A DNA stretch of 11,954 bases. It comes from a virus. Positions 1-9,012 of the stretch are shown here, one piece after another. The stretch lies in the UHGV virus genome UHGV-2190786. One strand, 5' to 3'. Both the position numbers and the translations under genes were made by a program. Every line of letters starts with the position of its first letter. Positions within the stretch are counted from its first letter, which is position 1. Below the pieces are notes generated by a model. The model saw nothing but the letters and a program-made list of their open reading frames with translations. It searched no databases and had not been told where the DNA came from.

Positions 1-984
1 CGCTTACGTGGGCGTTATGCGTGGTCAAAAGACGGAACTGATTCATGGTTTATCACTGACCTTGAAGACGAATCGCACCCTGACCGATACAGTGCACAAT
101 ATCGCGCAGAATCGCAGCCGGACGGCATCATCGGTATCGGGACATGGCGAGACTTCATCGTCTGCTTTGGTTCATCGACGATTGAGTATTTTTCCCTGAC
201 TGGTGCAACCACCGTTGGTGCTGCTTTGTATGTCGCCCAGCCATCGCTGATGGTGCAGAAAGGCATTGCCGGAACCTACTGCAAAACGCCGTTTGCTGAC
301 TCGTATGCGTTCATCAGCAATCCGGCAACAGGTGCGCCGTCTGTGTATATCATCGGCTCCGGTCAGGTATCACCAATCGCCAGCGCGAGCATTGAGAAAA
401 TACTACGCTCCTACACTGCTGATGAACTGGCTGATGGTGTGATGGAATCGCTGCGATTTGATGCGCATGAACTGCTGATTATCCATCTTCCGCGCCATGT
501 TCTGGTGTACGACGCATCTTCAAGCGCCAATGGTCCGCAATGGTGTGTGCTGAAAACAGGACTGTATGATGATGTGTACCGCGCTATCGACTTCATTTAC
601 GAAGGCAATCAGATAACGTGCGGCGATAAGCTGGAGTCCGTGACCGGGAAATTGCAGTTCGATATCAGCAGCCAGTACAACAAGCAACAGGAACACCTGC
701 TGTTTACTCCACTGTTCAAAGCGGATAACGCCAGAGTGTTCGACCTTGAGGTTGAATCGTCAACTGGCGTTGCGCAGTACGCCGACCGCCTGTTCCTCTC
801 TGCAACTACTGACGGAATCAATTACGGGAGTGAGCAGATGATTGAGCAGAATGAACCGTTCGTTTACGACAAGCGTGTTTTGTGGAAGCGTGTCGGGCGC
901 ATCAGGAAAAACATTGGCTTCAAATTGCGCGTTATCACGAAGTCACCTGTCACTCTTTCTGGCTGCCAGATAAGGATTGAGTAA
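1..984 (+). CDS. Tail hub / tail accessory factor, gp10-like; 3' portion only, 5' end lies upstream of the window
   Basis: Frame 1 is open from base 1 to the TAA at 982-984 with no stop. The six-frame track only begins at an internal TTG (226). The stop overlaps the ATG of the next gene (TAATG). Identity is assigned from position immediately upstream of the tail needle gene and from a size consistent with a roughly 470-aa gp10; I do not recall the gp10 sequence itself. Confidence 0.6.
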
Positions 985-1832
985 TGGCTGATTCGAATCT
1001 CAATGTGCCGGTAATCATCCAAGCTACGCGGCTCGATACATCAGTCCTTCCACGCAATATCTTCTCGCAGTCGTATCTGCTTTACGTTATTGCACAGGGC
1101 GCTGATGTTGGTAATGTGGCTAACAAGGCCAACGAGGCCGGACAGGGCGCTTATGATGCACAAGTCAGGAACAATGAGCAGGATGTGATTCTGGTCGATC
1201 ACGAAATTCGACTGGCATCGGCTGAAGCGAAGATACAGGACCACGAAACAAGGATCACTAACGCAGAAGCGGCGATAGTCGGCCTTGATTCACGATTAAC
1301 GACAGCAGAAAACGATATTGAGTATCTGACTGATGAAGTTGTCGCCATTCAAAACACGCTTTCAGACCATGAAACGCGCATTGATGCTCTGGAGTATGCA
1401 ACCACGCGCAAGAAGTCAGAGGTTGTTTACTCTGGCGTATCTGTAACCATCCCGACAGCGCCGACCAACCTTGTTAGCCTGCTGAAAACGCTCACGCCGT
1501 CATCCGGATCGTTGGCACCATTCTTCGACACCGTTAACAACAAGATGGTTGTGTTCAACGAGAACAAAACCCTGTTCTTCAAGCTGTCGATCGTCGGGAC
1601 GTGGCCCAGCGGAACCTCCAACAGGTCAATGCAGCTAACCTTTTCCGGCTCTGTTCCTGACACTCTGGTAAGCAGTCGCAACTCGGCGACAACAACCGAT
1701 AACCTCTTGTTAGCTACGTTCTTCAGCGTGGATAAAGACGGCTTTCTTGCCACAAATGGCAGCACGTTAACCATTCAGTCAAATGGTGCGGCGTTTACTG
1801 CCACAACCATCAAAATCATTGCGGAGCAGTGA
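984..1832 (+). CDS. Tail needle (P22 gp26-like) with C-terminal knob domain (Sf6-type), 282 aa
   Basis: The N-terminus [39 protein letters not shown]...[12 protein letters not shown] closely matches my recollection of the P22 gp26 N-terminal hub-binding region. A heptad-like coiled-coil stretch follows (DHETRIT...DHETRID). The C-terminal ~140 aa are Ser/Thr-rich and non-coiled, as in the knobbed 282-aa Sf6-type needle rather than the 233-aa P22 needle. Confidence 0.85.
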
Positions 1833-2311
1833 TGGAAATAAAGCTCATCGATAATCCGGTGAAGCTTGCAGAATTCCTCAACAACCCGGCAAACACGGGA
1901 AATATCGTAGACAGTGGAGACAAATACTACATCAAGCCTGATGCGGTATACCTCGGCATCTACGAAGGACTGATGCTGGTCGGAGTGCATGAAGTGCGTA
2001 ACTTCTGGCATAGCGTTGTTGAATGCCATGCGGTGTACGACCCCGGATTCCGTGGCGAATATGCACTGCAAGGGCATCGATTATTCTGCAAATGGCTTCT
2101 CGAAAACTCACCATTCCTTAACAGCATCACTATGGTTCCTGACACCACGAAATACGGACGGGCAATTATCCGTTTGCTTGGCGCTACCCGTGTTGGTCAC
2201 CTTGATGATGCTTATACCAGCAATGGAAAGCCTGTGGGCATCACGATTTATCAGTTACCGCGCTCAAAATACGAGGAGCTAACGAATGTTAATTTTCCAG
2301 ATTGCCAATAA
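1832..2311 (+). CDS. gp14-like protein (by position in the P22 late operon), about 159 aa
   Basis: The ORF starts at an ATG that overlaps the tail needle stop (TGATG at 1830-1834); the track begins one codon earlier at a GTG (1829). Size and position match P22 gene 14. Product is assigned by synteny only. Confidence 0.65.
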   Translation: MEIKLIDNPVKLAEFLNNPANTGNIVDSGDKYYIKPDAVYLGIYEGLMLVGVHEVRNFWHSVVECHAVYDPGFRGEYALQGHRLFCKWLLENSPFLNSITMVPDTTKYGRAIIRLLGATRVGHLDDAYTSNGKPVGITIYQLPRSKYEELTNVNFPDCQ

Positions 2312-2939
2312 GCACCTCAGCAAAGCTGTTTACTGCAAAGGTGGCAGTGATGGCGGTTCAAAGGCACAGGCACGCGCAACTGAAAAGGGCATCGAATTGC
2401 AGCGTGAAATGTGGCAGACGAACATGCAAAACCTTGCACCGTTCACGCCACTCGCTCAGCAGTACGTATCACAGTTGCAAAATCTTTCCTCTCTTCAGGG
2501 GCAAGGTCAGGCGCTTAACCAGTATTACAACTCCCAGCAGTACAAAGACCTTGCAGGTCAGGCGCGTTACCAGAGTCTGGCAGCAGCAGAGGCAACGGGT
2601 GGATTAGGCTCTACAGCAACAGGAAACCAGTTAGCAGCAATCGCACCTACACTCGGTCAAAACTGGCTGTCAGGTCAGATGAACAACTACAACAATCTGG
2701 CAAATATCGGCCTTGGCGCTCTTACAGGTCAGGCAAACGCCGGGCAGAACTATGCCAACAACGTCAGCCAATTGTATCAACAGCAGGCGGCAGCATCTGC
2801 GGCTAATGCGAATAAACCATCAGGATTTCAGAGCGCCCTGGGTGGAGCGGCAGCAGGTGCAGCTGCAGGTACTGCAATCATGCCTGGTTGGGGTACAGCA
2901 ATTGGTGCTGGCGTCGGTCTTCTTGGTTCACTTTTTTAA
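2286..2939 (+). CDS. Ejection (DNA-injection) protein, gp7-like, 217 aa
   Basis: ATG at 2286 is preceded by GAGGAG about 7 nt upstream and overlaps the end of the previous gene by 26 nt. The protein is Gln/Asn/Gly/Ala-rich low complexity with a hydrophobic glycine-zipper C-terminus (GGAAAGAAAGTAIMPGWGTAIGAGVGLLGSLF). Position and size match P22 gene 7. Confidence 0.75.
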   Translation: MLIFQIANKHLSKAVYCKGGSDGGSKAQARATEKGIELQREMWQTNMQNLAPFTPLAQQYVSQLQNLSSLQGQGQALNQYYNSQQYKDLAGQARYQSLAAAEATGGLGSTATGNQLAAIAPTLGQNWLSGQMNNYNNLANIGLGALTGQANAGQNYANNVSQLYQQQAAASAANANKPSGFQSALGGAAAGAAAGTAIMPGWGTAIGAGVGLLGSLF

Positions 2940-2951
2940 TGGAGGTGTCTC

Positions 2952-4364
2952 TTGGCTACATGGCAACAGGCTGGTAATTCAGGCGCGCTTCTTGCCGGGT
3001 TAGGCGGCATGAACTCCAACGCTCCAAGAGCAAGTGATGCAGACGCCACGCTTGCATACATTCGACAGAATAACGAGATGGAGCGTTCAGGACGTAATAA
3101 CGTTGGCTTGCAGGCTTTGCAGGGCATTTCATCTGTCATGGATATGTATAAGCAGATGGATCAGCAGAAGCGACAGCAAGAGTTTCAGCAGGCTTATGCT
3201 GATGCATATACATCTGGTGACCGCGATGCAATGCGAAAACTGGCATCACAGTATCCTGAGCAGTTTGACGCCGTAAGAAACGGCATGAAATTTGTCGATG
3301 AAGACCAGCGTTCCACTGTCGGTACACTGGCAGCAAGTGCCAGACTCGCAGCTTCATCTCCAGAAGCCATGATGTCATGGTTGCAGAACAACTCATCTGA
3401 GCTTACTCGTGCCGGAGTAGACCCTCTGGATGTGGCGAAAATGTATCAGCAAAATCCACAAGGTTTCACAGAGTTTGTTGATCACCTTGGGATGGCTGCG
3501 CTTGGTCCGATTGATTACTTCAATGTTCAGGACAAGATGGCTGGTCGGGATATTGAGCGTGGCGAGTTGGCAGAGACAATCCGCAGCAATCAGGCTGGAG
3601 AAGTACTTCAGGCGAGAGGGCAAAATCTTTCCTATCAGTCAGCAATGACTGGGCACAACATCGCAGCGCAACGCTTGGCTCTGGATCAGCAAGAGTTCGG
3701 GTTTAAGATGCAGCAAGCGCAGGAAAAGGCTCAGCAGTTGATTAGCGAAGCACCTAAGCTGTCAGTAAACATGGAAAAAGGCATCGAGACGGCTGTAAAC
3801 AATGCTACAGCATCATCAAACTCAGCCAATTCTATGAGTGCGCTTGCTCAACAGTTCAGAGCAGAAAAACCAACGACAGGTTTGTTCGGTAACGCACAGA
3901 ACATGTTCGCAAAACTTACCGGAAGCGATACGACATTGCGTGATTTGCGCATTCGCCAAAATGCCCTTGTTAACAGTCAGGTTCTTAAATTCCTACCTCC
4001 CGGACCAGCAACGGATAAAGACGTTGAGATCGTTCGACAGGGTGCGCCAACTGACATGGATAACCCTGAGACGGTCGCAAGATGGCTTGATGCAATGGCA
4101 AACCTTGAGCGACGAAACGCGCAGTTTAATGAGTTTAAAGCCGAGTGGATGAGCGCGAATGGCAACCCTGGACAATCGCGTAATGGCGGTCAGATATTGG
4201 GGTTGGATGTTAAAAAAGGTGAATCATTGGGGAGTGCCGTTAAGCGGTATATGTCAATGAATACTGACGCAGCGCCAGCACAAGATTCGACACCTTCAGG
4301 TGAACCACGGAATCAGGTTGGATCATATACCTCAAAATCAGGCATTCAATTTACGGTGGAATGA
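2952..4364 (+). CDS. Ejection (DNA-injection) protein, gp20-like, 470 aa
   Basis: A long ORF whose first in-frame start is TTG at 2952, 6 nt after a GGAGG Shine-Dalgarno (2941-2945). The next in-frame ATG is 19 codons downstream. Size (470 aa) and position match P22 gp20 (471 aa). Confidence 0.8.
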
Positions 4365-6208
4365 TGAAAGTAACTGCAAACGGTAAGACATTTACCTTTC
4401 CTGATGGTACGAGCACCGAAGATATTGGCACCGCCATTGATGAGTATTTTGCTGGTCAGGTTGTTCAGCAACAAACAGTTAATCAGGCCAATAATGCACC
4501 AACACGGGAAGAACCATCATTGATGCAACAAGCTGGCGATTGGCTCACTGGTGGTCAAAGTGCAGGGCAAATTGCAGAACAGGCTGGTCGTGGTCTGGTA
4601 AACATACCATTTGACGTATTGCAGGGTGGCGCAAGTCTGATTAATGCAATCAGCCAGGGGCTTGGTGGCCCCAAGGTTTTGGATGATGTTTATCGTCCAG
4701 TAGACAGACCGACAGACCCCTATGCTCAAGCTGGAGAAACAATTGGCGGGTATTTAGTTCCAGGAGTTGGAACGGCAGGAAGCATGGCTATTGGATCACT
4801 GGCAGAGGCCGCAAATCAGAAAGGTGATTTCGCGCAAAATGCAGCCATAAATGCCGGAGTTAACCTTGCCGCTCAGGGTGTTCTTTCCGCAGCAGCAAAG
4901 GGAATAGGGCGTGGAATAACGGCTATAAAAGGCGATATCGCGCCAGAAGTAGCGAAAAAAATTGCCACCTCAGAATCAATGGGGGTGACACCAATGACAT
5001 CTGATGTCATCCCACCGAAAAATGCTTTCACTCGTGGCCTTACTCAGGATGCCGAGGGGGCTTTGCTCGGGACAGGCTCAAAGCGAGCTGAGCAATATGC
5101 AACGCGTAGTAAGCTGGTAAGTAATTATTTTGACCGTTTTGGTGAGTACAACCCTGATGATGTGGTGAAATCTCTGACCACCACGTTAAGGGGGCGGAAG
5201 GATGCTGCTGGCGCTGTTATCAATGACGTCACCAATAAAATGGGTAATGCCGCAGTTGATACCACAAACACTATGAATGCTCTGAATACAGCGATCGCAA
5301 GACAGGAACGGCTTGGGACGTCTGCCAATCAAAGCCTGCTTACATCCTTGCGTAACCTACGTGAAGAATTAGCAAACCCTGCAACTGATTTGGATGTTAC
5401 GTTTGATCTCTTGCGTCAGCACAGAACAGCATTTAGATCTAATGTTCAGGGAGATGCTATGGTCTTCCCCAACCAGGCAAAAGCAGCTACCAATATGGTA
5501 GAGAATGCAATGTCAAAAGACCTTCGTAACGCAGTTGCAAAAAACCTCGGTGCGTCAGACGCAGCAAAATACCTTAAAGCAAATTCCGATTATGCAAACG
5601 TTTATAATAAGGTGCTTAATAAAAACATTGCTAACAAGCTCAACAAGGCAAGCAGTGAAGCCAGTCCTGAACTTATAAATACTGTTGTATTAAGCAGAAA
5701 ACCATCTGACGTGAAACGAATCTGGAGCGCATTGGATGATAAAGGGAAAGATGCTATGCGTGCAGCTTACGTCAGCAAAATAGCGGAAAAGGCCGGTGAC
5801 TCTCCAGCCAAGTTCATCACTGAAGTTAATAAGCTGAAATCTCAGTCAGGTGGTGAAATTTACAACACTATTTTTTCTGGAAAGCACATGAAAGAGCTTG
5901 ATTCTCTTCATGAAGTTCTACAGAAAACAGCAAGGTCAGACACCGCAAATGTAGTAACTCAGACGGGGCAATCGCAAGCCAACAGGATAAGGACGATTGG
6001 CGCAACTGCGACTCTTGGCGTATCAATGGGGCTTGAGGCTGGTTTCGGTGCAATCATGCGCTTGTATGAGTCCAAAGCAGCAAGGAATGCTCTCTTACGT
6101 TTGGCAAACACCAAAGCAGGAACACCTGCCTATGAAAGAGCGCTAAATAATGCTGCAAATGCGATACGCCCTATACTTTCAAGCCAAATTACAGCAGAAC
6201 AGCAATAA
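4361..6208 (+). CDS. Ejection (DNA-injection) protein, gp16-like, about 615 aa
   Basis: Tandem ATGs at 4361 and 4364 overlap the gp20 stop (TGA 4362-4364). The N-terminus [15 protein letters not shown] matches what I recall of P22 gp16, which argues for the second ATG (4364) as the true start. Size matches P22 gp16 (609 aa). Confidence 0.85.
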
Positions 6209-6222
6209 AAGATAAGATATAA

Positions 6223-6708
6223 CTACCTGATATTATTGCTACTGTTGCATGTTACCGTGTTTCCAAATCCTGAATTGCAGTTTGTATATGTGTCAACGCG
6301 TGTTGGGTAAGGTTGAGTTATAACAGGCTGGCGCGCTTTTTGCTCGATCGCTTGCATTGTGTTTACAGCCTGATAATTCAATAAAGCCTGCTGGAATGCT
6401 TGGCTTTGTGCTATTTGTTGGGCTTGTTCTTGGCTTTGTAATTGAACATAAAGATTATGAAGCTCAAGTCTTGCTTGTGCGTCACTTATCTTGCCTTCAT
6501 CGACACCTTGCCCGAGCATCTTTGCAGCAAGGACATACAGCTTAGGTGTTGGTGCTGATGCCATGCGTGAGTCGTTCTTCACACTGGCATCAAGGCAATT
6601 AGCCATATCGCTAAGCTTTTGATAGCGTTGTTCGCAACTTGCTTGATAGTCACTTACTTTTGCGCATCCAACCAGCAGAATCGGGATAATTAACAGTGAT
6701 TTTTTCAT
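6223..6708 (-). CDS. Predicted lipoprotein of unknown function (moron in the sieA slot), about 161 aa
   Basis: The start is taken at the ATG at 6708-6706, which has a strong Shine-Dalgarno (AAGGAGAG) about 8 nt upstream on the minus strand. The N-terminus MKKSLLIIPILLVGC is a type II signal peptide with lipobox LVGC; the +2 residue is Ala. It is followed by a Gln-rich predicted coiled-coil and a Cys-containing C-terminus. The track's longer ORF (to 6744) adds 12 residues with no ribosome-binding site. Confidence 0.7.
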   Translation of the reverse strand: MKKSLLIIPILLVGCAKVSDYQASCEQRYQKLSDMANCLDASVKNDSRMASAPTPKLYVLAAKMLGQGVDEGKISDAQARLELHNLYVQLQSQEQAQQIAQSQAFQQALLNYQAVNTMQAIEQKARQPVITQPYPTRVDTYTNCNSGFGNTVTCNSSNNIR

Positions 6709-6778
6709 ATGGTTAACTCTCCTTAGTTTTTCACAGGATATCATGAAGGCAATGCCATTTTAGCCGGAAACTAGATTT

Positions 6779-7045
6779 CTATGTTTCCTTTTTATTATTG
6801 CTATACATGGTCTTAAGCGTTTCAAAAACCATTTTCTTAACCATATCAGATTGTTGTTCTGCCATACGCTCTGCATCGTCAATGTAAACTGGTGCAGAGC
6901 TTTGTTTAGCCAATGATTCTTCAATCGCTGCAATTATCTCTGAGTTCAGCGACCTGTTATTCATCTTCGCACGCTGCTTAATTTTCGCGTGGAGTTCATG
7001 CGAAAGTCTCAAGTGAAACTGCGCCTCGTCGTATTTGCTGTACAT
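6779..7045 (-). CDS. mnt: Mnt-like ribbon-helix-helix repressor (Arc/MetJ superfamily), about 88 aa
   Basis: The stretch RAKMNNRSLNSEIIAAIEESLAK...DDAERMAEQQSDMVKKMVFETLKTMY aligns with my recollection of P22 Mnt (RAEANGRSMNSELLQIVQDALSK...NDAERLADEQSELVKKMVFDTLKDLY). The start at ATG 7045-7043 (MYSKYDEAQFHL...) matches the P22 Mnt N-terminus; the upstream ATG at 7078 would give 99 aa and cannot be excluded. Confidence 0.85.
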   Translation of the reverse strand: MYSKYDEAQFHLRLSHELHAKIKQRAKMNNRSLNSEIIAAIEESLAKQSSAPVYIDDAERMAEQQSDMVKKMVFETLKTMYSNNKKET

Positions 7046-7118
7046 CCTTGATGCCTCACCAGTTGGGTGGAATGGCATCGTAACCTACTGGATAAATACT
7101 CAATAGTACCATTTCGGT

Positions 7119-7141
7119 ATGCAATCACATCATGGTTGCAT
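7119..7141. promoter_or_regulatory. Candidate operator: inverted repeat ATGCAA-N11-TTGCAT in the mnt/tailspike divergent intergenic region
   Basis: A perfect 6-bp inverted repeat separated by 11 bp sits in the short gap between the mnt start and the tailspike start. Calling it an Mnt operator is inference; it does not resemble the P22 O_mnt sequence as I recall it. Confidence 0.25.
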
Positions 7142-7166
7142 CATATCATTCGTCTGGAGTAATGAA

Positions 7167-8987
7167 ATGTCAGATATCACCGCAAATGTTGTGGTAAGCA
7201 TGCCTTCGCAACTCTTCACTATGGCTCGTTCTTTTAAAGCCGTAGCTAATGGAAAGATTTATATCGGAAAAATTGACACTGATCCGGTAAATACTGAAAA
7301 CCAGATCCAGGTTTATGTGGAGAACGAAGACGGCTCTCATGTTCCTGTATCGCAACCAATCATCATTAACGCTGCTGGTTACCCGGTATATAACGGACAG
7401 ATTGCCAAGTTCGTAACTGTGCAAGGCCATTCTATGGCTGTTTATGATGCATATGGGGCGCAGCAGTTCTATTTTCCTAATGTGTTGAAGTACGACCCTG
7501 ACCAGGGAATTATCAGGTTAAAAGAAGAAATTGCGAAAGATGATGGAGAGAAATATATCGGAATATGCCCTGACGTTTCTACGCTCAGAACAATTGAGCC
7601 ATCATTCGTCGGGCAAAATATAACTGTTCGTGGATACTACTCTGACACACCCGGGCTTGGGGGAGGAACGTTTATAGCCTTTTCCAGTTCTGAAGCTGAC
7701 GATGGTGTGAATATTTTTGTTACCCCCGGCGGTAAGCGATGGAAGAGAGCAGGAAGCCACATCGATATTCCGGTAGAGAACGGTGGCATGATGACATCAT
7801 GTACGGCTGAGCAAAACAGTGAAGCCTTTGAACGCCTGACTGCATGCCTTCCATATGAAGGAGGTACGCTCAGACTCAATGGATTTTACGATATTAAGTA
7901 TGGCGCTATCGTGCCTCCACGTGTCACGCTGGAGGGGTGCGGTATGGATTCCTGTGGATTAATTAAAACAGGTAACGATATTAAAACCGTTCCGGATCGC
8001 ATGTGGCAGGGTGTACCACACAGCTTCTCCAAAGACTTTATTGTTGCGGTAGATATGGATAGCGATACGTCTGGTAGTCCAAATGGTCCAGTAGGTAATC
8101 AAGTCAGAAGCACCAGAATAATTGGATTGAGCTTAATATGCTCATCCATCACTCCATGCGCATTCGGGATCTATTCCAGTATCAGTTATGACGTCAGGCT
8201 ACAAGATTTATACGTAAAAAACGTAGGTATTGGATATCGTACCAGCGATAGTTGGCTGCAGTCATGGTCAACTATAACAGTTGAGAATGTTAATAAGGGA
8301 TTTTTTGTTGAAAATGGAGGTACATCATTCAATATATCAAATACTTATGTTAAAAATGCGTCATCAATTGCTTATCATTTTGTTAATATAACATACAGTA
8401 CGCTGACATGTACGGCAGCAGATTATATTAATGGCTCTGCTTATGCCTTTTTGGGCTGCACAAGTATAGTTATGAATGGGTGTGGGGCAGAGAATATAAC
8501 TGGTAGTGCTTTTGAGTGCAACCAGTCAAGAGTTACCATTAACTCTTTTAGAGGAGTGAAGTTTTTTGATGCTGGTAATATAGCTTGCATATTTACACAG
8601 TGTGCAATAGTAATGAGCGCTTGTTTTCTCCCTGAATTTGATGGTTCTTTTTCAAGTAAGTATTTTGAGCTTAATGATTCAACGATCAATCTGAACAATA
8701 CCGTTTGCCCGGATGCATCGAGAGTAAAATGGGGCGAGACAGCAGTGTCATGGATAAATTTCTCAAACTATGGCGGAAACTATACAATCTGGGGCGTTAC
8801 TGCTTGGACCGCAACAGGGTTCCTCGTAAATGGAATTGCTCATGTCTATGCGGAATTACCTCCTGATTCCTCTGTCACACAGTTTAGCCAAGGTGCTAGA
8901 TGGGAGCTGATAAGACCCACAGCTGGGAATAACTATAAATGGATTCATACCGGCGGAGGAGTCTGGAGAGCGGCAGGTAGTATATAA
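7167..8987 (+). CDS. Tailspike protein: P22 gp9-like N-terminal head-binding domain fused to a divergent beta-helix receptor-binding domain, 606 aa
   Basis: The start is ATG 7167, preceded by GGAG at 7156-7159. The N-terminus [42 protein letters not shown]...[13 protein letters not shown]...NVLKYDPDQ matches the P22 tailspike head-binding domain as I recall it. The remainder has a repetitive, Cys-rich N-x-S/T pattern typical of a parallel beta-helix and is not P22-like. The track's extension back to 7119 has no ribosome-binding site and no homology. Confidence 0.9.
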
Positions 8988-8990
8988 AAA

Positions 8991-9012
8991 AGAGGGCGGC
9001 TAGCCGCCCTCT
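8991..9012. terminator. Bidirectional intrinsic terminator between the convergent tailspike and gtrC genes
   Basis: A perfect GC-rich inverted repeat AGAGGGCGGC/GCCGCCCTCT is flanked by an A-run on the 5' side (which is a T-run on the minus strand, directly after the hairpin) and by AATAATTATT on the 3' side. It is the stronger terminator for the minus-strand gtr transcript. Confidence 0.7.

Follow-up and report, generated by a model that had tools for sequence, protein, structure and literature searches.

Which sugar does a prophage tailspike recognise, and how did its gene come by the part that recognises it? The question is raised by UHGV virus genome UHGV-2190786, analysed here over a stretch of 11,954 nucleotides (nt), referred to as the window, in which a tailspike gene occupies positions 7167-8987. 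An initial annotation described this gene as a P22-type head-binding domain joined to a non-P22 beta-helix, and took a stretch of the helix rich in A and T (AT-rich) as the mark of a horizontally acquired receptor-binding module. Our reading, to which we give a probability of about 0.7, is that the gene is intact and belongs to a temperate podovirus of P22-like (Sf6/HK620-type) character residing as a prophage in E. coli, that it is a mosaic of three modules, and that its product, a tailspike, probably binds and cuts the O107/O117 O-antigen. The parts of the gene are as follows (GC, guanine-cytosine content; GC3, the same at third codon positions).

7167-8987, plus strand: tailspike gene, 606 codons and stop, GGAG at 7156-7159
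7167-7505, plus strand: module 1, P22-type head-binding (particle-attachment) domain, residues 1-113 (Pfam PF09008)
7506-8062, plus strand: module 2, proximal receptor module, residues 114-299 (neck helix, D3'-type domain, capping helix and about the first three beta-helix rungs, as predicted)
8052-8062, plus strand: crossover interval in the D-M-D-S codons, residues 296-299 (alignment A3)
8063-8984, plus strand: module 3, distal receptor module, residues 300-606 (loop at residues 303-313, remaining predicted rungs to about residue 522, beta-sandwich)
8268-8681, plus strand: AT-rich and most divergent part of the beta-helix core, residues 368-505 (GC 0.343, GC3 0.23)

Three modules and two junctions

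Where do the parts of this gene meet? One junction lies inside the receptor-binding part. In alignment A3 the window equals L008, which encodes another P22-like tailspike type, through nt 8062, and equals the viral contig L003 starting at nt 8052. Sliding identity gives the same picture. L008 matches at 98-100% of nucleotides over residues 1-300, and two further loci (L002 and L006), which diverge within residues 1-90, match module 2 at 98-100%; after residue 301 all three fall abruptly to 64%, and down to 39% at the 3' end. L003 behaves the other way round, with 66-87% over residues 1-300, then 94-98%, and 90-92% over the last 65 or so codons. The crossover interval lies in the codons for DMDS, which is part of a motif whose residues D290, D296 and D298 never vary across 32 homologues. 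Module 2 itself is conserved at 76-100% protein identity across the family.

The other junction is the expected one. PF09008 (Head_binding) spans residues 1-113 with its full profile covered (E 8.9e-67), which bears out the recognition of a P22 head-binding domain in roughly the first 110 residues. This domain is 75% identical to P22 gp9 (residues 2-113) and 91% to Sf6 gp14, and the Protein Data Bank (PDB) chains of the Sf6 and P22 tailspikes align with the N-terminal part alone. DNA matches in the phage database end at gene nt 339-340, about 1100 complete E. coli genomes match the module 1 portion only, and many prophages match the window only to 7505. By these comparisons the first junction, after residue 113, is the classical junction behind the head-binding domain. 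Within that domain, the first 90 or so codons (window 7167-7440) are 91-93% identical to the copy in E. coli APEC-O117H42 (L001, a prophage remnant) and the remainder of the gene is 98-100% identical to it, a step that points to a further small exchange inside module 1.

Judged from these alignments, then, the gene is a three-part mosaic, with module 3 joined within the predicted beta-helix after about three rungs. The joining of a head-binding domain to a non-P22 beta-helix stands as first described, with the correction that there are three parts and not two, and junctions at residue 113 and at residues 296-299. The precise mid-helix crossover is new here and, lying at a conserved motif, offers an example of recombination inside, not merely beside, a receptor domain.

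What does the receptor part look like? The initial annotation held everything after the head-binding domain to be unrelated to the P22 receptor domain, and we found no sequence match to that domain in gp9: full-length P22 chains (2xc1, 8tvr) align only to residues 1-149. Pfam, in a version without the PF27114 model, gave nothing past residue 113, and NCBIfam and PADLOC gave nothing for the receptor domain. An AlphaFold2 monomer model of residues 110-606, built with 32 homologues, has a mean predicted local distance difference test score (pLDDT) of 89.2 and a predicted template-modelling score of 0.84, with pLDDT above 90 over most of module 3; residues 303-313 (pLDDT below 50) form the only disordered internal loop. 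The predicted order is a neck helix, a small beta domain, a capping helix (residues 214-226), a right-handed parallel beta-helix (about residues 233-522) and a C-terminal beta-sandwich (about residues 528-602), so that the beta-helix proposed at first is also what the model predicts. The Cys-rich character noted at the outset is real as well. All 15 cysteines lie within residues 114-606 (3.0%), seven of them in residues 368-505, and the peptide quoted as an example, ending in ECN, is found at residues 388-452.

Foldseek against the PDB ranked gp42 of Acinetobacter phage AS12 first (6EU4; E 1.6e-16, template-modelling score 0.68, 16% identity), with Belisarius gp86, CBA120 TSP2, K2 capsule depolymerases and WceF at lower ranks; the P22 tailspike was not among the top fold matches. 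The family profile aligns residues 123-197 or so to CBA120 TSP2 residues 257-331, and about 114-197 to the TSP2dN chain 5w6p (E 1e-11 and 3e-10), and also matches WceF and the K2 depolymerases Depo32/DpK2. In TSP2 the D3' domain comprises residues 270-328 and has a fold seen only in tailspikes (PMC7506556). Here the D3'-type small beta domain (about residues 132-196, nt 7560-7754) directly precedes the capping helix and beta-helix, and carries the precomputed Pfam label PF27114 (Phage_tail_beta). By analogy with tailspikes of solved structure, the spike should be a homotrimer.

Is the gene intact, and where does it begin? The program-made list of open reading frames (ORFs) gives a frame of 7119-8987 on the plus strand. 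We reject 7119 as the start, since no ribosome-binding site precedes it and the N-termini of homologues correspond to position 7167. The ATG at 7167 is taken as the true start because GGAG lies upstream of it and the homologue N-termini agree. The possibility of a pseudogene or remnant was likewise rejected, since the gene is intact and a complete late operon surrounds it. The 606-residue protein is 100% identical to its cluster representative (P0001), and is already in public databases, where many draft assemblies of E. coli label it 'phage tailspike protein'; the commonest 606-residue form is present on 45 contigs.

A low-GC core shared by the family

Is the AT-rich core a scar of recent import? 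It had been placed at roughly 8250-8700 and described as more AT-rich than the structural genes upstream and the gene's own 5' end. GC and GC3 computed along the gene confirm that composition is not uniform. The best low-GC segment covers residues 368-505/511 (nt 8268-8681/8699), with a GC of 0.343 versus 0.456 elsewhere in the gene and a GC3 of 0.23 versus 0.42 in the rest. The dip is real, yet for one gene its significance is no more than moderate, because 7 of 200 codon permutations equalled the GC contrast and 4 of 200 the GC3 contrast. It holds against the rest of the gene (0.464 for residues 114-302, 0.469 for residues 506-606) and against the upstream structural genes (0.46-0.52); the 5' end, at 0.437, is barely above the gene mean of 0.428 and does not bear out that part of the description. 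From its amino acids the core is expected to have a GC of 0.41-0.43, the figure being 0.41 when they are encoded with the codon preferences seen elsewhere in the gene. About 40% of the drop comes from amino-acid composition (Asn, Phe, Ser, Thr, Ile), and the remainder from AT-ending synonymous codons.

The comparison that matters is with relatives. Receptor modules 60-69% identical over residues 115-606 are found on at least four different N-terminal anchors: the P22-type head-binding domain, Tail_spike_N (PF18668, on contigs of 44-46 kb), an epsilon15-like anchor (proteins of 699-700 residues from prophages beside yfgI) and that of the Kuttervirus spike. From this distribution the receptor module is, as far as sequences tell, horizontally exchanged among phage types.

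Initially, the AT-rich core was read as a receptor-binding segment recently imported into this gene from a low-GC donor. GC3 down to 0.23, of which amino-acid composition accounts for part only, would fit such an import, as would the nearest detectable relatives outside the family, which are Acinetobacter phage tailspikes; Acinetobacter phages have low-GC genomes. Against it, the segment aligned to residues 368-505 is AT-rich in every family member examined (GC 0.34-0.42, GC3 0.21-0.36), on P22-like, epsilon15-like, Tail_spike_N and Kuttervirus anchors alike, and even where protein identity in the core is 39-57%, as it is to the other family types; identities of 92-99% are reached only in L001 and L003, which share the type. 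Moreover, the junctions lie at residue 113 and residues 296-299, and pairwise comparisons revealed no recombination junction near residue 368 or residue 505. Neither a close module 3 relative with a normal-GC core nor a member from a low-GC phage with an identical core and foreign flanks, either of which would favour a recent import, was found. A recent import is thus very unlikely. On these alignments the AT-rich core characterises the family as a whole and does not mark a module boundary, since it is AT-rich family-wide and its edges match no junction; an origin in a low-GC genome, if any, would predate the diversification of the family. Of the proposed horizontal acquisition there remains the exchange of the receptor part among anchors, of which AT-richness is not the signature. 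The family-wide nature of the core is new here, and it cautions against taking local GC dips as proof of recent transfer.

Low GC is also found nearby, in gtrC (0.339), and in the O107/O117 wzx-wzy genes (0.278). Along the window, it is in the 3' half of gp16 (5250-6208) that GC drops to 0.40-0.46, from about 0.50, and it remains low across the immI-like region and the tailspike, so that the prophage's low-GC tract starts well upstream of the tailspike gene.

Host association, likely receptor and mechanism

Which bacteria carry this spike? Of 5426 complete E. coli genomes, three carry a near-identical copy (98.4-98.6%): PSS-08-1, GZ2408P and APEC-O117H42, each time in a decayed argW prophage with the first 8 nt of the gene missing. 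A sensitive DNA search of the same genomes with the distal module returned those three and VE-T9 only, and the distal-module family as a whole amounts to four genomes with six copies of three or four types. One type, P22-like, is found in VE-T9 only; another, epsilon15-like, is found in VE-T9 and APEC-O117H42 only, the two copies being 82% identical. The O107/O117 wzx-wzy genes, taken from APEC-O117H42, are present in 20 of the 5426 genomes, and all four family carriers are among those 20 (Fisher p 1.3e-10, with genomes treated as independent). Draft isolates labelled O117:H42 also carry members, from two clusters. Next to each copy, on its downstream side, comes an O-antigen-modifying gene (gtrABC or an acyltransferase gene), a linkage that argues for the O-antigen as the class of receptor. 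O107 and O117, being only one sugar apart (PMC7685785), are inseparable here. The likely receptor is the O107/O117 O-antigen, a candidate inferred from host association for a specificity that the initial annotation had called unknown. No tailspike linked to O117 and no O107/O117-specific spike was found in the literature searched, and the candidate assignment is new here.

Several points weigh against this assignment. It rests on four complete genomes, and these are not independent: the three remnant carriers share the H42 flagellin and the same deletion, and count as one event because one prophage remnant is common to all three, while an epsilon15-like prophage sits at the same site in both APEC-O117H42 and VE-T9, which leaves about three to four independent events. 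Sixteen of the 20 O107/O117 genomes are without the family, and the host of the window is itself untyped for serogroup. Family members differ by 40-60% in the core and therefore need not share one receptor; this protein and its relatives above 66% identity are all biochemically uncharacterised. Could the association then reflect shared ancestry or ecology of a few strains, the true target being a capsule, another O type or a gtr-modified form? The small number of carriers and events and the untyped host would allow it, and a prophage gtr or acyltransferase gene alters the O-antigen after lysogeny, so that the present surface may differ from the one infected. On the other hand, the carriers span at least two H types, and hitch-hiking with the H42 lineage was rejected: VE-T9 is not H42, and 32 other H42 genomes, of other O types, are without the family. 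The association also extends over three to four distal types, two kinds of prophage and three sites (argW, near yfgI and beside ybhB-bioA), with all typed hosts being O107/O117, and the linkage to O-antigen-modifying genes again favours the O-antigen class. We regard a receptor other than O107/O117 as unlikely.

Two observations concern the carrier prophages. The argW prophage of APEC-O117H42, like that of PSS-08-1 and GZ2408P, is reduced to the tailspike, gtrCBA and intS. At L001 8617-9026, and equally in the other two genomes, a deletion has brought what is left of a LysR-family gene (dsdC, judging by position) up against the tailspike gene, which has lost its first 8 nt; the remnant is annotated with a later start. 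The epsilon15-like prophages beside yfgI in VE-T9 (L019 5692-9171) and APEC-O117H42 (L020 2843-6193) encode the tail protein of 699-700 residues followed by an acyltransferase; their flanking genes are identical but their distal parts only 82% so, which suggests module replacement within one prophage lineage.

How would the spike work on O107/O117 O-antigen? Residues 1-113 would dock it onto the tail hub, and residues 114-606 would form the neck, D3'-type domain, right-handed parallel beta-helix and C-terminal beta-sandwich. By analogy with other tailspikes the beta-helix would bind the host O-antigen and most likely cleave it as an endoglycosidase, so that the virion could reach the outer membrane and DNA ejection be triggered there by the gp26 needle. 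In the lysogen, gtrABC would then glucosylate the O-antigen and block re-adsorption. The gene itself most likely arose by homologous recombination among related tailspikes, with module 3 contributing the divergent AT-rich core, presumably the seat of fine specificity, joined to module 2 at the invariant DMDS.

Which residues could be catalytic? Tailspike glycosidase sites always lie within the beta-helix and use two nearby carboxylates (PMC7506556). In the 32 homologues D290, D296, D298 and D347 are conserved at 100%, D361 and E442 at 97%, and position 419 is acidic in 97%; the spacing between D419 and E442, 23 residues, is roughly that of one rung. Candidate pairs or groups are thus D419/E442, D347/D361 and D290/D296/D298. 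Within the O107/O117 gene cluster there are genes for rhamnose synthesis, for four glycosyltransferases and for an epimerase but none for a uronic-acid pathway, which favours hydrolase over lyase chemistry, and we infer a hydrolase. It must be weighed against this that the fold comes from a monomer model, and that alignment to CBA120 TSP2 or AS12 gp42 gave no mapping of catalytic residues, their helix regions aligning too weakly. Might the spike bind glycan without cleaving it, or modify it as a deacetylase or lyase? That seems quite unlikely. The best structural neighbours are phage tailspike depolymerases, CBA120 TSP2 being the only one checked as a hydrolase (PMC7506556), and several helix acids are invariant; a lyase would need the uronic-acid pathway that the O107/O117 cluster lacks, and Pfam detected no esterase domain of the SGNH type.

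A bolder idea, tentative and probably not right as it stands, is that the distal variants, which have diverged to 39-57% identity in the core, circulate only among phages of O107/O117 E. coli, on P22-like and epsilon15-like prophages and each paired with a different O-antigen-modifying gene (gtrABC or an acyltransferase gene). Each could then be matched to its own decorated version of one and the same O-antigen, new variants arising by crossover at DMDS. If true, this would amount to a cycle of conversion and counter-adaptation within one serogroup. Epsilon15 and epsilon34 in Salmonella provide a comparable cycle.

Why does this matter? Receptor modules set which serogroup a phage infects, and they are used for serotyping, as decolonisation enzymes and in engineered host ranges. 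O117 includes avian-pathogenic strains, and this candidate, its module borders being clear, can be taken straight into expression and anchor-swapping. The current understanding of tailspike biology is left unchanged.

Neighbouring genes and known relatives

What surrounds the gene? By Pfam and PHROGs it sits in a P22-type late operon, 3' of the ejection-protein genes and the immI region.

226-6208, plus strand: gp10 (Phage_stabilise), gp26 needle with Sf6-type knob, gp14, gp7, gp20 and gp16 (Pfam and PHROGs)
6223-6744, minus strand: ORF of unknown function, 161/173 residues (PHROG 6067), between gp16 and mnt, GC 0.425
6779-7078, minus strand: Mnt/Arc-type repressor gene, divergent from the tailspike (Pfam Arc and Repressor_Mnt)
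8991-9012, no strand assigned: GC-rich hairpin with a 9-bp stem between the convergent tailspike and gtrC, terminator-like, T-run on the minus strand
9032-10666, minus strand: gtrC (DUF6056/GT_STM0557_N; Pfam)
10663-11595, minus strand: gtrB (GT2; Pfam)
11592-11954, minus strand: gtrA; the serotype-conversion cassette gtrCBA spans 9032-11954 on this strand

The ORF at 6223-6744 had no Pfam, PADLOC or meaningful NCBIfam match. VE-T9 has an HNH endonuclease gene at this position, and P22 has sieA there; the ORF may be a moron or a superinfection-exclusion gene. The immI region (6779-7166) is reduced to one Mnt/Arc-type repressor gene. With arc and ant absent, the 88-bp region between mnt and the tailspike may hold an Mnt-controlled promoter that reads directly into the tailspike gene.

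From 7165/7175 to 11954 the window aligns as a single block with L001 (99.0%) and with L003 (88.4%). Because the tailspike and gtrCBA both lie in these blocks, they are, on the alignments, co-inherited and travel together. The prophage of the window is about 99.8% identical to L016 (Logan SRR26714007), at 15.7 kb the only long contig that encodes the exact tailspike protein. In L016 (12604-15666) gtrA ends the prophage some 450 bp from genes with PBP (YbhB-like), Aminotran_3 (BioA-like) and radical-SAM (BioB-like) domains. We take these genes to be ybhB-bioA-bioB and thus the site to be the lambda attachment region. There gtrA has no integrase beside it; the argW copies have intS directly after gtrA. 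Ending beside ybhB-bioA and not at argW, the prophage of the window represents a separate integration.

How far does the family reach? Among isolated phages in GenBank none is closer than the Kuttervirus spike relatives (65.5%). No characterised tailspike was found to be near-identical to this one; such a match would have spoken against the initial annotation. The species representatives of GTDB gave one remote relative, in a Limisphaerales metagenome-assembled genome at 26% identity, which is uninformative on taxonomic spread. The literature searched, including for pSC20 and for an O117 tailspike or depolymerase, contained no characterised relative, and its sole O117 phage paper concerns a T4-like phage.

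How does this spike compare with those already known? P22 gp9, an endorhamnosidase, shares the PF09008 head-binding domain, the gene position after gp16/immI and before gtrABC, and the general plan of a beta-helix spike, whereas its C-terminal receptor domain has no sequence homology here. The closest head-binding domains are those of the Sf6 gp14 and HK620 tailspikes (Sf6, 91% of residues as above; HK620, 92.6% of nucleotides over gene nt 16-339), from phages of the same type, with an Sf6-type needle knob and gtr-type conversion genes. For the receptor part the closest are spikes of the Salmonella Kuttervirus (Ackermannviridae) phages STML-13-1, BRM 13313 and vB_SenAc-pSC20, which belong to the same family with 65.5-67% identity over the receptor domain, D3' included, and a core (L004) that is AT-poorer yet still low in GC; they differ in their PF18668 Tail_spike_N anchor and in coming from virulent myoviruses. 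A subtype survey of Ackermannviridae assigned no receptor to the Kuttervirus relative spike, and the identity is below the 75% threshold used there for a shared receptor (PMC8432352). CBA120 TSP2, a glycosidase specific for E. coli O157, shares D3', but its helix is only 14-15% identical and it has another anchor and another serogroup. Acinetobacter phage AS12 gp42 (6EU4) and Belisarius gp86 are 16-18% identical and annotated as capsule depolymerases, with another host genus and another anchor.

The closest precedent for the approach is the work of Pas et al. 2023, in which receptor modules were found to have moved among Lederberg-, Uetake-, Kutter- and other viruses and specificity was inferred from host serogroup (PMC10408124). 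The phenomenon and the method of inference are those met here, and O107/O117 is not among the 14 serogroups assigned in that study. The swapping of receptor-domain modules and the serogroup-based reading of specificity were thus already established (PMC10408124, PMC8432352), and it is within this framework that the present tailspike takes its place.

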